Source of the DNA: a virus
Virus record (IMG/VR): IMGVR_UViG_3300023179_000012
Length of the DNA stretch: 64,000 bases
Direction: 5' to 3' (one strand)
Shown here: one piece after another, positions 1,806-46,977 of the stretch
Layout: each line of letters begins with the position of its first letter
Position numbering within the stretch: the stretch's first letter is position 1
Program-made: the position numbers and the translations under genes
The notes under the pieces: generated by a model
What the model saw: only the letters and a program-made list of their open reading frames with translations
The model's database searches: none
What the model was told of the DNA's origin: nothing

Positions 1806-1823
1806 AATTATTCCTTAATTAAG

Positions 1824-1896
1824 TAGGAGTGGTGGGAGTCGAACCCACACTGTACGGATTTTAAGTCCGTTGTCTCTGCCATTGGACTACACTCCC
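1824..1896 (-). tRNA. tRNA-Leu(TAA), short variable loop
   Basis: Cloverleaf GGGAGTG...CACTCCT-A; anticodon arm ACGGA-CTTAAAA-TCCGT; T-loop TTCGACT. Confidence 0.9.
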
Positions 1897-3142: not shown

Positions 3143-3859
3143 TTAACTTTCAAGTACAAAACTCCAGTATCGACTATCTTCTTTATTTTGCAAAGCATCC
3201 CAGTAGATTGAACGAGCAATATATGATGGAACCTTATGCTTGCCACAGTTTACAACCCAATGACGCTCCATCTTCTTATAAGAATCAGTACCACTCTTGC
3301 TCTTATTGTACTTTAAATGTTCCATATCGTAAAGACGCAACTGATGAACATCTCCGCACAAAACTCTTGCCTCATTAGGATGAATCATTTCAAGAGCAAA
3401 ACTAACCTTAGCCAGACCAATGCCATTAATCTTGTTTACGATTTCATCACGCTTCTTGACATGACCCTTTTTGGTAGTAAAATAAAAATCTTTAGGATTA
3501 TCCCAAAACTTTGTGGCAAAATCCCAAATATATTTTGTACGATTATTGTGTAGACCCACACCACTTTTGTGGAGTTTTTCTCTCAGAATATTCTCATCAC
3601 CAAGCCATTCATCAAAATTCTTGATAGCATTATATCCGGCACAATTGCCTTTCCATGTAGTGTGAACGCTGCAATATGCAAAAAGATAACGACGGAAAAT
3701 ATCCTCCATGTTTTGTGGACGCACACTCTCCCAATATTCTTTATAAGATACCACCTTATCTTTAGCAAAAGTAGCAAAGAAAGTATCGGCTTTCGTCTTG
3801 TCAAGAGTTGTATTTTGAATCTGAATAACAGTGTTTTCAACAATCATGGTTTTCTCCAA
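3143..3859 (-). CDS. HhH-GPD superfamily DNA glycosylase (8-oxoG glycosylase/lyase-like)
   Basis: HhH motif INGIGLAKVSFAL followed by VLCGDVHQLR (catalytic Asp); SGVGLHNNRTKYI. Confidence 0.7.
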   Translation of the reverse strand: MEKTMIVENTVIQIQNTTLDKTKADTFFATFAKDKVVSYKEYWESVRPQNMEDIFRRYLFAYCSVHTTWKGNCAGYNAIKNFDEWLGDENILREKLHKSGVGLHNNRTKYIWDFATKFWDNPKDFYFTTKKGHVKKRDEIVNKINGIGLAKVSFALEMIHPNEARVLCGDVHQLRLYDMEHLKYNKSKSGTDSYKKMERHWVVNCGKHKVPSYIARSIYWDALQNKEDSRYWSFVLES

Positions 3860-3872
3860 TGGGTATGCTGTG

Positions 3873-3901
3873 ATTCTACACTACTGGTATCGGTTTGTCA
3901 A
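3873..3901 (-). promoter_or_regulatory. sigma70-type promoter
   Basis: TTGACA-aaccgataccagtagtg-TAGAAT. Confidence 0.75.
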
Positions 3902-3912
3902 GACTCGTTTCT

Positions 3913-5226
3913 TTAAACGGTTCTCGCAGCACCATGTAGAATTTTAAATGTTGGAAAACGCAAACTAATACCACCTTCTTGATTTTTAGTTTCCTCAAAA
4001 TATTGGACTGTGATAATTTGTCCAAGAATCTTTTTAGGGTTTTGATAAAACTCTTGTCTTTGGTCAATAGCAAATCCACTACCAACCCTAACAATATTAT
4101 CCTTGTGCTTAATCATCACGCAACTAAGCATGGTTTCTTCATGTTCTCTTCCATTCAAGACATATCTAAATGGCCCCATTTCAACATCTACTACTTCATA
4201 CTCATCATCAAAAAACTTTTTAACTTTGAGTAGGTCTTTACTTCGCTTGCCTTTATATGGTTCATCAGCACGAAGCATCACGCCTTCCCAACCATCATTC
4301 TTTGCCGTAACAGTCCACTCAGCAAAATGCTCATCATCTTCAATCAATTCTTGATAAAGAACAGTAAGACATGGACATTCGTTGTTTTTCATAACTTCAG
4401 AAAGGTTATTATAGCGGATAGAATAAGGACGATTCTTTTCTCCTGTTTTGCTATAAAACTCATCGTGAGAGATCATATCAAAAATCTTAAAAGACGGATT
4501 CGGAATAGTATGATCTTTCTTCTTGAGTTGTTTCATAACCCCTTGAAAATCTTCATTACCATCTTCGTCTACTAGACAAAGTTCACCATCAAATACTATA
4601 TTTGTAATGCCAAGAGCCTTAATACCATTAGCAACAACGCCAAGAGTATCAAATTCTTTTCCCGTGCGGGAATACAAAGTAGCGTTCCCATCAGAATCAA
4701 CAACAGCAATACATCTAGCACCGTCGATCTTGCGACTAACATACCATCCATCCTTCCAGTCTACAAGTTTAGGCTCATACTTATCTGCCAGAGCAACACT
4801 AAACTCTGGAATAAGGTCACGAATTGCCTTGTTTATAATCTTGTCACCAGCACGGGTTTTCAAATCCTTATCAATTACACAGTGGATAAGTTCCTCGTAT
4901 TCAGAATACTGTTCAACGAAACTATTCACAGCAGCAATAGCATCATGCCCAGTAATTTTACGACTCTTGAGATCATCCAGCAAAGTAAAGAAATTTTTAT
5001 ATTCATTCTTTCGTGCAACCAGATGATTCTTTTTCTTTAGATTGTCGCTAGTAATATTATACTGCCACAATGGATGGTAGGTATAGAGAAGAATTTTCTT
5101 GGTAAACACAGCACCAGTATTATTGATATGACAATAATCTTGAATAATTCCTTCCTTGTCCTTTGTGCTGCTAGTAGCCCTCAAATCACGAACCATTCCC
5201 CAAACATAATCAAAATCGTGAGTCAT
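3913..5226 (-). CDS. lig: ATP-dependent DNA ligase
   Basis: Motifs KIDGARC (I), DGEL (III), EGVMLR (IV), LLKVK (V), LRFPTF (VI). Confidence 0.95.
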   Translation of the reverse strand: MTHDFDYVWGMVRDLRATSSTKDKEGIIQDYCHINNTGAVFTKKILLYTYHPLWQYNITSDNLKKKNHLVARKNEYKNFFTLLDDLKSRKITGHDAIAAVNSFVEQYSEYEELIHCVIDKDLKTRAGDKIINKAIRDLIPEFSVALADKYEPKLVDWKDGWYVSRKIDGARCIAVVDSDGNATLYSRTGKEFDTLGVVANGIKALGITNIVFDGELCLVDEDGNEDFQGVMKQLKKKDHTIPNPSFKIFDMISHDEFYSKTGEKNRPYSIRYNNLSEVMKNNECPCLTVLYQELIEDDEHFAEWTVTAKNDGWEGVMLRADEPYKGKRSKDLLKVKKFFDDEYEVVDVEMGPFRYVLNGREHEETMLSCVMIKHKDNIVRVGSGFAIDQRQEFYQNPKKILGQIITVQYFEETKNQEGGISLRFPTFKILHGAARTV

Positions 5227-7662: not shown

Positions 7663-7802
7663 TTCTTTTTCTTTTTTGATGGATTTTCTAGTTTATCTAA
7701 TTTTTTTTGTAATTTATTGAAATATTTATCTTCTGCCAATTTTTTTGGGTCATGGTCTTGTTGCTTCTTAAATTTCTTTAGTACTTTTTTCCAGAACTTC
7801 AT
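7659..7802 (-). CDS. small Lys-rich protein (47 aa)
   Basis: MKFWKKVLKKFKKQQ...; its stop overlaps the DUF1501 ATG (ATGA). Confidence 0.5.
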   Translation of the reverse strand: MKFWKKVLKKFKKQQDHDPKKLAEDKYFNKLQKKLDKLENPSKKKKK

Positions 7803-7804
7803 AA

Positions 7805-8158
7805 TGGATGCGGCGGGAATCGAACCCGCGTCCTAGCATACTTCAAATTATATCTTCTACAAGTTTATTATGTTCATAAGTTTTATGAAAGATTAAAGAA
7901 CAAACAACATTCATCTTTCCGTACCAACTAATCTCATGCTAGAACCCGTTGGCTATTCTAGCAGCCGAAGGATTTTACATCAATCTTTTGAACGCTACCT
8001 TCATCGCTTTCTAAGATTGTTGCTGTTATTTAATTAAGCAGCAAGGGCTAACTGAGTATTGCCAGTTAAAGCATTTAATCGACTTTTAAAGTGGCCGGTC
8101 GATTAACCACTACTTGCTAATATAATCTTCTTTATGTAGTCGAAACCTTTACGCACCC
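7805..8158 (-). ncRNA. ssrA: tmRNA, tag (A)GNTQLALAA
   Basis: 5' GGGTGCG...TTCGAC; 3' T-arm GCGGGTTCGATTCCCGC and CGCATCC-A with G3.U70; tag frame 8063-8034 after TTAACT, ending LALAA-stop. Confidence 0.93.
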
Positions 8159-8355
8159 TTATTATTATACACAAAATCCCTGTTTTGTAAAGTCTCTAGT
8201 TTGAGATAGAGATATTCAAAAAAGACTTTATACATAATCTTTTCTTTCCTCAATAGTTTAATCTCCTCATACTGAATAAGATTAAAACCAAAAGACATAG
8301 ATAAAAGACCAATTATTGTTACATAATATGGCATATGTTTGGATCTGTTAGACAT
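8149..8355 (-). CDS. small membrane protein, hypothetical
   Basis: Hydrophobic YYVTIIGLLSMSFGFNLI segment; lies between tRNA-Ile and tmRNA. Confidence 0.45.
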   Translation of the reverse strand: MSNRSKHMPYYVTIIGLLSMSFGFNLIQYEEIKLLRKEKIMYKVFFEYLYLKLETLQNRDFVYNNKGA

Positions 8356-8370
8356 TATTTTCTTTCTAAG

Positions 8371-8642
8371 TAGGGCGTGTAGGAGTCGAACCTACCTTTT
8401 GAATACCTTATCTTACCACTATAACTTTCGTTACCCAATGGTTTGTGGTCTGGACTTTATCTTTACCATAACTTTCGTTTTAGGTACTGCCTGTCAAGTC
8501 TCTACACCTTACTATTTTAATAGTCTTGGCTCGGTATTAGCATTTTAAAGCCTTCACCGAATTTAAGCAGTTCTACTCTACTGGTTTCCCAGTAGGCACT
8601 CATAATTTTAAGAGTATGTGCAACTACCGGCTGCAACGCCCC
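8371..8642 (-). tRNA. tRNA-Ile(TAT) interrupted by a group I intron (exons 8610-8642 and 8371-8411)
   Basis: Acceptor GGGGCGT/ACGCCCT-A; spliced anticodon arm ATACT-CTT^ATAA-GGTAT; T-arm GTAGG-TTCGACT-CCTAC. Confidence 0.85.
8412..8609 (-). ncRNA. group I self-splicing intron (IC3-like), 198 nt, no ORF
   Basis: IGS AAAATTATGAG; AAATTCGGTGAA...AATACCGAGCCAAG (P4-P6); GGTGTAGAGACT (R); AAAGATAAAGTCC (S); terminal G. Confidence 0.9.
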
Positions 8643-8673: not shown

Positions 8674-8702
8674 ATTATACCTTATCGACCAATCCCTGTC
8701 AA
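8674..8702 (-). promoter_or_regulatory. sigma70-type promoter for tRNA-Ile/tmRNA unit
   Basis: TTGACA-gggattggtcgataagg-TATAAT. Confidence 0.8.
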
Positions 8703-9250
8703 CCCTTGAGAAATTTTTCGTAATAGTGGCGATAAATACTCATAATGATACCACTAGTTGTTCCAACATTTAAAGACCTAACACTTCCATAAGTAGGAAT
8801 AGTCAAAACACAAGCACAAGCCATAAGAATTTTCTCTGACAATCCAGAATTTTCTTCTCCAAAAATAAAAATTGGCTCATCAATATTAGAAAAATCAAAA
8901 CTAAAAGGATCAAATGTCATGTCTTTGTATTCTGGAATATTATTTTCAATAGCAATTAATGTTCGGCCACTTAATGAATGTGATCTAATAAAATCTTCTT
9001 CAGTTTTATGATAATACATAGGAGTATAGTGGTGAGTTCCTACGCTTCCTCTTTTATCCCATTTCTTTTTACCAACATAATGAACGCTACGAAATCCAAA
9101 AAAATTAGCATTACGAACCATAGTGCTAAGATTAAAATCTCCACCAATATTTACCATAGCAACACTAGCAGGAATACTTTTGTCCTGACAATAGTTCGCA
9201 ATATTCTCGACTGCTAAATCTTTAAGACTGTCTATTACGTTCATCTTCAA
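8699..9250 (-). CDS. SpoU/TrmH-family (SPOUT) RNA 2'-O-methyltransferase
   Basis: NIGGDFNLSTMVRNA, FGEENSGLS, SLNVGTTSGI. Confidence 0.9.
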   Translation of the reverse strand: MKMNVIDSLKDLAVENIANYCQDKSIPASVAMVNIGGDFNLSTMVRNANFFGFRSVHYVGKKKWDKRGSVGTHHYTPMYYHKTEEDFIRSHSLSGRTLIAIENNIPEYKDMTFDPFSFDFSNIDEPIFIFGEENSGLSEKILMACACVLTIPTYGSVRSLNVGTTSGIIMSIYRHYYEKFLKG

Positions 9251-10430: not shown

Positions 10431-11107
10431 TTTTTGATTCTCCTGTGAAGTATAATCCTAGTATACCACAGTTATCGGTGTTGTCAAGCGGGTTTCTTTA
10501 GAAGTTCTGTCCGTTTTTATCAGAGTCGGGGATAATAGTTAATTTGCCCGGAACATAATGACAAAAATAACTACTATGAATTCTCTTCTTGGTTAACATA
10601 TCTTCTTCAATTTCTACATAAACATTAATACGATATCTATTATCCCAAACATTAATAATCTTAGTTATTAAATGATGTTTGGGTTTTTCAACTTGTTTAA
10701 ATAGCAGGCTCTCAATTTCTAGATCCACTAAAGTTCTCCTTAAAAATTGAATCAATATTAGTCATAAGAACAAAACGGTCTGTTCCACGGTTATCACTAA
10801 TATACATTGTGTCACACTCAAATTCATCTCCAGTATTTCCATCGTGAATAATTACTGGGCTTTGCCAATTAAAATTACCAATATTTTTGAGTTCGTTAGC
10901 CTGTTTATGCAAAAAATCGTATAGTTCCAGCCAAGTTAGTTTATTCATATCATCTACGTTTTTCTCTGTAAAGAATGATGTAACCCCAACCATGTTCGTT
11001 GGCAAAAGTATTGATAGAAATAATTTCTATACCATCATTTACTTCTAGCCAATTATTAATTTCTGAACTATCTGTTTTAATCTTTATATCAAAAATTTTT
11101 ACCTTCA

Positions 11108-46365: not shown

Positions 46366-46416
46366 AGCCACTTTCTCCTTTTCCACTATCATACACCAAC
46401 GAACACGATTGTCAAG

Positions 46417-46487
46417 TAGGGGCCGAAGGTAACGCTCCTTCTTCAATAGATTAAAAGTCTATTGCATCACTTTAATGCTTGACCCCC
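46417..46487 (-). tRNA. tRNA-Lys(TTT), atypical T-loop
   Basis: Anticodon arm ATAGA-CTTTTAA-TCTAT; T-loop AGCGTTA; A at position 8. Confidence 0.75.
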
Positions 46488-46884: not shown

Positions 46885-46887
46885 AAA

Positions 46888-46974
46888 CGGAATCTGAGGG
46901 ATTCGAACCCCCGGAGGATTTTAACCCTCGGCGGTTTAGTAAACCGCTGCCTTAAACCACTCGGCCAAGATTCC
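46888..46974 (-). tRNA. tRNA-Ser(ACT)
   Basis: GCGGT-TTACTAA-ACCGC; long variable arm; G discriminator. Confidence 0.85.
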
Positions 46975-46977
46975 AAA

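Follow-up and report, generated by a model that had tools for sequence, protein, structure and literature searches.

The question raised by positions 8371–8642 of a 64,000-nucleotide stretch of virus DNA (IMG/VR record IMGVR_UViG_3300023179_000012; hereafter, the window) is what interrupts a tRNA gene there, and whether the interruption serves the phage or only itself. A preliminary description, made from the sequence alone, had read the segment as a tRNA-Ile(UAU) gene split by a group I intron and had suggested that decoding of AUA might be gated by splicing. The present analysis supports the former and not the latter. At a probability of roughly 85%, we regard the locus as a phage tRNA(UAU) gene split by a selfish or neutral, ORF-less 198-nt IC3-type intron from a family that dwells mostly in tRNA(UAA) genes. 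The parts of the locus are as follows.

8642–8610, minus strand: 5' exon of tRNA(UAU), 33 nt, ending ...ACUCUU and the same as in intronless alleles; it comprises the acceptor strand (8642–8636), the D arm, the 5' strand of the anticodon stem (AUACU) and C32, U33 and U34 (8612–8610)
8609–8412, minus strand: group I intron, IC3-like, between U34 and A35, 198 nt, without an ORF; first letters AAAAUUAUGAGUGC (AAAA-UUAU-GAG-UGC), last letters ...GUGGUAAG
8411–8371, minus strand: 3' exon, 41 nt, first letters AUAAGGUAU, no CCA encoded; it comprises A35, U36, A37 and A38, the stem strand GGUAU, a 7-nt variable region, the T arm, the 3' acceptor strand and the discriminator A (8371)

The rejoined exons form a 74-nt tRNA with the loop CU-UAU-AA. 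After splicing in silico, this product was called tRNA-Ile(tat) by ARAGORN at default settings, in agreement with the preliminary description. The unspliced gene was reported as tRNA-Ile(tat) with a 198-nt intron only when introns were allowed and the threshold was relaxed. The tRNA most likely accepts isoleucine and reads AUA: its amino acid was assigned by the anticodon alone, and A73, A37 and A38 are all present. The geometry of the tRNA is non-canonical, with U8 standing alone between the acceptor and D stems where two bases are canonical, two bases after the D stem and a variable region of 7 nt. This odd form is kept in many intronless copies, including a compensatory change in the D stem from GCAG/UUGC to GCCG/UGGC. 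The exons of intron-bearing relatives also differ from those of the window in pairs. In the relative L131, acceptor pair G3-C70 is replaced by C3-G70 and the T stem GUAGG/CCUAC by GUUGG/CCAAC, and in L028, L086 and L257 the anticodon stem AUACU/GGUAU is replaced by ACACU/GGUGU or GCACU/GGUGC. Such paired differences are as expected for a working tRNA. A second tRNA(UAU) subtype (...AAGGUAAGCCGGUUGCAUCCG...), in which the D stem is poorly paired, was also observed among IMG/VR relatives.

The intron was recognized by the Rfam model Intron_gpI (RF00028) with 58.4 bits against a gathering score of 50 (E value, 2.4e-14; full model, 1–253) at 8621–8432, when the region was searched alone (511-base search). 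The call of a 198-nt group I intron at 34/35 of a tRNA with anticodon UAU is upheld. The intron went unreported when all 64 kb of the window were searched with Rfam, both in gathering mode and in E-value mode; we presume that this is due to speed filters, which are stricter on more sequence. Since default ARAGORN and long-stretch Rfam both miss the split gene, phage tRNA sets, and the codon-usage arguments built on them, are under-counted. Long-stretch Rfam scans will under-count introns of this kind.

The anatomy of the intron, as read from its sequence and from an alignment of 57 distinct tRNA-borne introns of the same family, is listed below.

8601–8599, minus strand: 3' strand of P1, the internal guide GAG, pairing with exon CUU (8612–8610)
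8605–8602, minus strand: P10 guide UUAU, four pairs with the 3' exon AUAA (8411–8408)
8595–8578, minus strand: P2 hairpin, 7 bp, with GAAA tetraloop L2 (8588–8585); 7 of 7 pairs with compensatory changes in the family
8570–8565, minus strand: 5' strand of P3, pairing with 8492–8487; 6 of 6 pairs with compensatory changes in the family
8560–8555 / 8536–8531, minus strand: P4, invariant in 57 sequences
8552–8550 / 8541–8539, minus strand: P5, with compensatory changes in the family
8530–8528 / 8508–8506, minus strand: P6, from the family alignment and RNAalifold
8524–8521 / 8514–8511, minus strand: P6a, from the family alignment and RNAalifold
8502–8497 (GAGACU, A8501 bulged) / 8456–8452 (AGUCC), minus strand: P7, read from the sequence
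8486–8464, minus strand: P8 hairpin, stem from the family alignment, carrying CCUAAA...UAUGG
8448–8445 / 8419–8416, minus strand: long-range stem of P9, CCAC/GUGG, with compensatory changes
8434–8421, minus strand: inner hairpin of P9, GUAAC-GAAA-GUUAU, with loop L9 at 8429–8426 and compensatory changes
8412, minus strand: omega-G, the last base of the intron; G in 57 of 57 aligned introns, with a junction that agrees with the intronless allele

RNAalifold analysis of this alignment recovered P2, P3, P4, P5, P6/P6a, P8 and the P9 domain, with 44 pairs in total, 29 of which showed compensatory changes; the window intron has a standard pair at all 44 consensus positions. In group I introns, the guanosine-binding site lies in P7, a pseudoknot helix. 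Both strands of P7 are invariant in the 57 sequences, and covariation is therefore silent for or against this helix. The motif CCUAAA...UAUGG in P8 resembles the 11-nt GAAA-tetraloop receptor and, by comparison with the Azoarcus intron structure, is a candidate for one. A repeat, ACGAAAGUUAU, present in both P8 and P9, was considered as a possible duplication and rejected, as it belongs to two distinct GAAA-capped hairpins that vary independently in the family alignment.

At the 5' splice site, U34 (U8610) forms a wobble with G8601, next to U33-A and C32-G, and this pairing of CUU with GAG, like that of AUAA with UUAU in P10, was read where the preliminary description had put it. P1 is short, consisting of three pairs, a U.U mismatch and one further pair, and the Rfam alignment of the window intron takes another P1 register without U.G at the junction. 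Placement of the splice junctions depends on homology and on the intronless allele, not on the strength of P1. The GAG guide is retained in all U34-hosted members of the family, in the arrangement CUU/...GAG (the slash marking the junction). P5 is a simple hairpin without P5abc, P2 is present, and L2 and L9 are both GAAA, as in IC3 introns of bacterial tRNAs. Assignment to IC3 was made by homology to tRNA(UAA) introns and by matching core strings by eye to Williams' Azoarcus and Thr.3Ug seeds. The Leu.3Ug type is defined by a tRNA-Leu(UAA) host; the host here has the anticodon UAU, although the intron is of the same sequence family.

To locate uninterrupted counterparts, IMG/VR was scanned for the joined anticodon arm. 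At least 120 loci were found, and ARAGORN identified an uninterrupted tRNA-Ile(tat) in at least 109 of them, although these loci are not independent samples and several come from closely related contigs. The earlier statement that UAU anticodons are rare is therefore untrue for phages, of which at least 109 IMG/VR contigs carry this same tRNA family. In seven loci the tRNA gene is identical to the joined exons of the window over 74 of 74 nt. Four syntenic relatives (L194, L213, L215, and L242) have flanks 72–91% identical to those of the window, the same neighbouring genes, and an uninterrupted tRNA at the same place, which in L215 is 8119–8192. They align to window positions 10500–8606 and then 8411–7800 without a gap on the relative's side, which indicates that the 198 bases are a precise insertion or deletion. 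With 8412–8609 precisely absent from these relatives and with the 74/74-nt intronless alleles, both junctions proposed earlier proved right, and the synteny with IMG/VR viral contigs bears out the phage origin of the window.

Copies of tRNA(UAU) with the intron were rare, comprising the window, L131, L028/L133, L086/L255, L259, and L257, that is, four IMG/VR contigs, or seven loci over all collections with the window included. The closest, L131, is a 187-kb contig that is 82% identical to the window around the locus and carries an intron 99% identical to that of the window. Nine further matches to the pattern CTCTTAAA..TTATGAGTGC, besides the true ones, were rejected as chance matches in coding DNA, and the metagenome matches L256 and L258 were likewise discarded as chance matches inside protein-coding sequence.

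The window also contains an intact 74-nt tRNA(UAA) gene (1823–1896), so that tRNA(UAU) is split and tRNA(UAA) is not; the reverse was seen in L020, L056, L090, and L101, where the intron lies in tRNA(UAA) and tRNA(UAU) is intact. In L133, both tRNAs bear introns. Within a single phage group, then, each of the two genes occurs both with its site filled and with it empty. The gene at 1823–1896 (minus strand) is called 'tRNA-Leu(taa)', but has a short variable loop rather than the long arm of a bacterial tRNA-Leu. The same intron family occurs in its short tRNA(UAA) homologues of the phage contigs L043, L074, L121, and L123.

The relatives of the intron itself were sought in deposited phage genomes by BlastN. 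The best match, with 81% identity, was in a 735-kb uncultured phage (LR756501), and a weaker one was in Agrobacterium phage Atu_ph07; both homologues lie inside tRNA-Leu(UAA) genes at the classical U34/A35 site. These homologous introns agree with the resemblance to the tRNA-Leu(UAA) IC3 intron noted in the preliminary description. When the 3-kb neighbourhood was searched against the same genomes, matches were obtained through the intron only, and the intronless tRNA gave no match. These results indicate a phage without a close cultured relative in that collection. Scanning of IMG/VR for two invariant core strings yielded at least 119 loci, and among the matches listed, 64 of 121 contexts were tRNA(UAA) genes with introns of 191–215 nt. 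Uncultured phages commonly carry group I introns of this tRNA-borne family. About 42 of the 121 core-pattern matches listed lay outside tRNA genes. Capsid genes of Pelagibacter phage HTVC120P (L002, 19433–20607) and of a deep-sea podovirus (KT997847, L004) are also interrupted by this intron core; their records each annotate two separate 'capsid protein' CDS.

Further members of the family were found in Gln(UUG), Glu(UUC), Arg(UCU), Thr(UGU), and CAU tRNAs. ARAGORN at a relaxed threshold often miscalled the anticodons of intron-bearing genes (as SeC, Stop, Phe, or Arg-acg), and junctions were re-derived by the CUU/...G/ rule, by which these hosts were placed, together with the conserved 3' end. 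In the CAU tRNAs the intron site is one base earlier. For the remaining hosts, the triplet 5' of GAG and the start of the 3' exon compare as follows.

Host UAA: guide triplet UUU, 3' exon start AAA
Host UAU: guide triplet UAU, 3' exon start AUA
Host UUG: guide triplet UCG, 3' exon start UGG
Host UUC: guide triplet AGG, 3' exon start UCA
Host UCU: guide triplet UAG, 3' exon start CUA
Host UGU: guide triplet UAC, 3' exon start GUA

Across these six host types, the triplet co-varies with anticodon positions 35–37. This covariation is strong comparative evidence that the introns of the family splice in each setting, and it also indicates that the UAU anticodon is no artefact of a misplaced junction. 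The rule is not absolute, since in the first of two intron-bearing genes of L254, a tRNA(UAA), the guide UAU next to GAG is mismatched to A36. The two genes of L254 (metagenome contig Ga0222713_10012296, approximately 3800–4300) adjoin each other. The family forms a natural series in which one ribozyme is re-aimed at six anticodons by a three-base guide; the series includes occupied as well as unoccupied sites and a nuclease partner that is present in some loci only, and should be of use in work on host switching by group I introns. Its members, at 191–215 nt, are very small natural ribozymes for which self-splicing is predicted. The window intron had been called one of the smallest of its class, which is true in relative terms only, 198 nt being typical of this phage family.

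Among known systems, the tRNA-Leu(UAA) intron shares with the window intron the U34/A35 site (CUU/A...), the P1 pairing of CUU with GAG and the core blocks; it differs in its host anticodon (UAA instead of UAU) and P10 guide (UUU instead of UAU), and the window intron resides in a phage. The Anabaena intron, at 249 nt, is longer than that of the window. The 205-nt intron of Azoarcus pre-tRNA-Ile(CAU) (Ile2.5Ug) is likewise small, ORF-less, of the IC3 type and in an isoleucine tRNA, and its L9 is also GAAA. It lies, however, after position 36 of a CAU (lysidine) tRNA and uses the guide GUG for exon CAU, whereas that of the window lies after position 34 of a UAU tRNA, and the chemistry by which AUA is read differs between the two tRNAs. 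In Williams' seed alignment, the Azoarcus and window introns share the strings AAAUUCGG.GAA, CCGAGCCAAG, GAAGGUGUAGAGACU, CCUAA...UAUGG, and AUAGUCCAG, and the Azoarcus L2 is a GAAA loop, as in the window.

The nearest work in print catalogues 21 kinds of intron-split bacterial tRNA (Williams, 2020; bioRxiv 10.1101/2020.01.27.920355), including '3Ug' introns of Arg, Thr, Lys, and Ser tRNAs at the same site as that of the window. These share a U34 tRNA and CUU before the splice site with the window intron, but the catalogue is of bacterial genomes. The guide of the Thr.3Ug seed, UAC followed by GAG, is that of the phage UGU-hosted intron L072. Ile(UAU) was absent from the 26 seed sequences of that source. 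Accordingly, the host tRNA, described earlier as unusual, is so in comparison with the four classical cases (Leu, fMet, Ile, and Arg), but less so beside these 21 kinds.

A tree was computed for the introns after removal of the guide columns. In it, all four UAU-hosted introns formed one clade (98/93), which sits in a group that also holds other host-switched introns, and this whole group is nested among UAA-hosted ones. The window intron therefore probably descends from a family whose usual hosts are phage tRNA(UAA) genes. The two introns of L133 fell in different clades. The pattern suggests, within the sampled data, a single transfer to tRNA(UAU), made possible because both tRNAs share C32-U33-U34, and a single U-to-A change in the P10 guide between UAA and UAU hosts matches the A36-to-U36 difference between their anticodons. 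The route of this host switch is inferred from these comparisons of sequences.

A candidate partner for mobility was found beside some of the intron-bearing genes. L131 and L133 each have a convergent ORF, at 8407–8973 in L131, that terminates no more than a few bases from the 3' end of the tRNA; both ORFs matched HNH endonuclease PHROGs (E values, 6e-22 and 5e-21) and were 63% identical to each other. By TBlastN, an HNH gene stood beside tRNA(UAU) in four of seven intron-bearing loci (L131, L133, L028, and L257) and in none of 112 intronless ones, a tally in which the loci are not independent of each other. The 580 bases that L131 has in excess of the window lie precisely between the tRNA gene and the following ORF. 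In the window, 8159–8370 contains no HNH gene and just a 68-aa ORF without a family match. The joint pattern of intron and HNH gene fits collaborative homing. Collaborative homing was reportedly described by Zeng, Bonocora and Shub in 2009 for a cyanophage psbA intron with the free-standing nuclease F-CphI. As in that system, the relatives of the window have an ORF-less intron beside a free-standing nuclease gene, which occurs in intron-bearing loci only; unlike in that system, the target is a tRNA gene and not a protein gene, the nuclease is of the HNH type and absent from the window, and homing is suggested by association. After the intron-bearing tRNA(UAA) of L043, L074, L121, L123, and L133, the reverse complement of a C-terminus resembling ...IVEK* was observed. 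As the C-termini are alike, the HNH family of the tRNA(UAU) loci may also accompany introns at the Leu site.

The events at the window locus can be proposed as follows. The precursor would be transcribed off the minus strand, and the intron would fold through P2–P9, with the GAAA loops L2 and L9 probably docking in the manner of Azoarcus. The exon end C32-U33-U34 would pair with GAG, and free guanosine would attack after U34. The guide UUAU would hold the 3' exon AUAA in P10, and the exons would be joined after omega-G 8412, giving a 74-nt tRNA the same as that of the uninterrupted gene in related phages. We infer splicing of the window intron from its anatomy. With the nuclease gene absent from the window, the intron is a stranded copy, and the tRNA can function only as long as splicing continues.

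Three other explanations were weighed against this reading of a selfish or neutral intron in a working tRNA gene. If the intron were a regulatory gate, AUA decoding would be timed or conditioned by splicing and would be independent of TilS once the ribozyme fires. No AUA-specific tRNA other than the host was seen in the window, where ATA is a common codon, and the intron lineage is an old one that has stayed intact in tRNA(UAU), the path between the introns of the window and L133 having a length of 0.22 changes per site. However, at least 109 IMG/VR contigs have the same tRNA family without an intron, seven with identical exons, compared with four that have one, and gated decoding is therefore unsupported. 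Empty-site relatives keep the same neighbours, the HNH association in relatives points to selfish mobility, and the intron contains nothing beyond the standard core that would suggest a sensor. A gate, as put forward in the preliminary description, is thus considered improbable.

Slightly less probable again is a decaying pseudogene, in which splicing by the ribozyme has stopped and the tRNA has been lost. A weak P1, the unusual tRNA geometry and the lack of a homing nuclease in the window would be in keeping with decay, but all invariant core columns are intact along with the 44 consensus pairs, the exons are identical to intronless alleles, and in the closest relative, L131, the exons differ by paired compensatory changes beside a nearly identical intron. 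Least probable of all is an origin without intron transposition, by which an intron-bearing tRNA(UAA) was duplicated and its anticodon changed. The two anticodons are one base apart, the loops share CUU and the final A, and L133 has intron-bearing copies of both tRNAs. Against this, the exons are unrelated beyond general tRNA features, with the tRNA(UAA) of the window (1823–1896) differing in the acceptor stem, D arm, and anticodon stem; most tRNA(UAU) genes of the family lack an intron; and the two introns of L133 belong to different clades.

A broader reading, which joins the family and its nuclease, is offered tentatively and is rather more doubtful than probable. According to it, small phage introns might re-target among C32-U33-U34 tRNA genes by the three-base P10 guide alone and be spread together with a free-standing HNH nuclease whose targets are tRNA genes without an intron. 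The copy in the window would then not be inert and would shield the AUA tRNA gene from the nuclease of co-infecting relatives. The anticodon-loop site would be favoured both as a nuclease target and for allowing the guide to be reset by one mutation.

The surroundings of the split gene were also characterized. Proteins encoded by the window include a DNA ligase of phage type, a thymidylate synthase, and endonuclease VII; the window also has a tmRNA gene and twelve genes for tRNAs, most of which read A-ending codons with U34. In its ORFs, ATA accounts for 30% of Ile codons and 24 per 1000 codons. The phage setting, the set of U34-reader tRNAs and the usage of ATA together make a phage-borne AUA reader plausible. 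Features of this context are listed below.

7802–8158, minus strand: tmRNA with the tag GNTQLALAA (Rfam, 132 bits), lying downstream of the split tRNA at a distance of 212 bases
8699–9250, minus strand: ORF for a SpoU-family RNA 2'-O-methyltransferase (Pfam PF00588; E value, 2e-23), 56 bases upstream of the split tRNA
46416–46487, minus strand: tRNA-Lys(UUU), Rfam 40.7 bits, missed by default ARAGORN
46887–46975: tRNA-Ser with the unusual anticodon ACU, adjoining tRNA-Lys(UUU)

The synteny of tRNA(UAU) and tmRNA is kept in relatives, and the tmRNA tag of L133 is GEVNLALAA. The SpoU ORF is found at the same place in relatives (9303–9848 in L131). As a candidate TrmL (the position-34 2'-O-methylase), it reached no NCBIfam equivalog cut-off and gave weak matches to RlmB, TrmH, and TrmL. 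The methyltransferase may modify the phage's own tRNAs.

A 2014 review placed every phage intron then known in protein genes (PMC3984707), and introns in phage tRNA genes were called unreported in 2019 (PMC6784885). The latter study described 'enigmatic' introns in tRNA genes of Lak megaphages, present or absent among close relatives (Devoto, 2019; PMC6784885). The Lak introns were left unclassified, one of them looking tRNA-like, whereas that of the window is a clear group I ribozyme. Our literature search yielded no account of group I introns residing in phage tRNA genes or in tRNA-Ile(UAU). The statements of 2014 and 2019, set against the present family of tRNA-borne group I introns, mark a gap in the literature.

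The same type of intron, with the UAU guide, was also observed in a Paludibacteraceae MAG from horse faeces, in a different and more canonical-looking tRNA(UAU), where the assembly breaks inside the intron. Contigs C120 and C172 of MAG JAKSLB01 (L260/L262/L264 and L261) hold three intron-split tRNA genes: an Arg(UCU) gene with a 294-nt intron, a tRNA(UAU) gene with a contig break in the intron, and a short tRNA(UAA) gene whose intron has an HNH-like ORF. The repeated introns seem to break the assembly of JAKSLB01, and its split-tRNA contig is probably a phage or prophage binned into the MAG.
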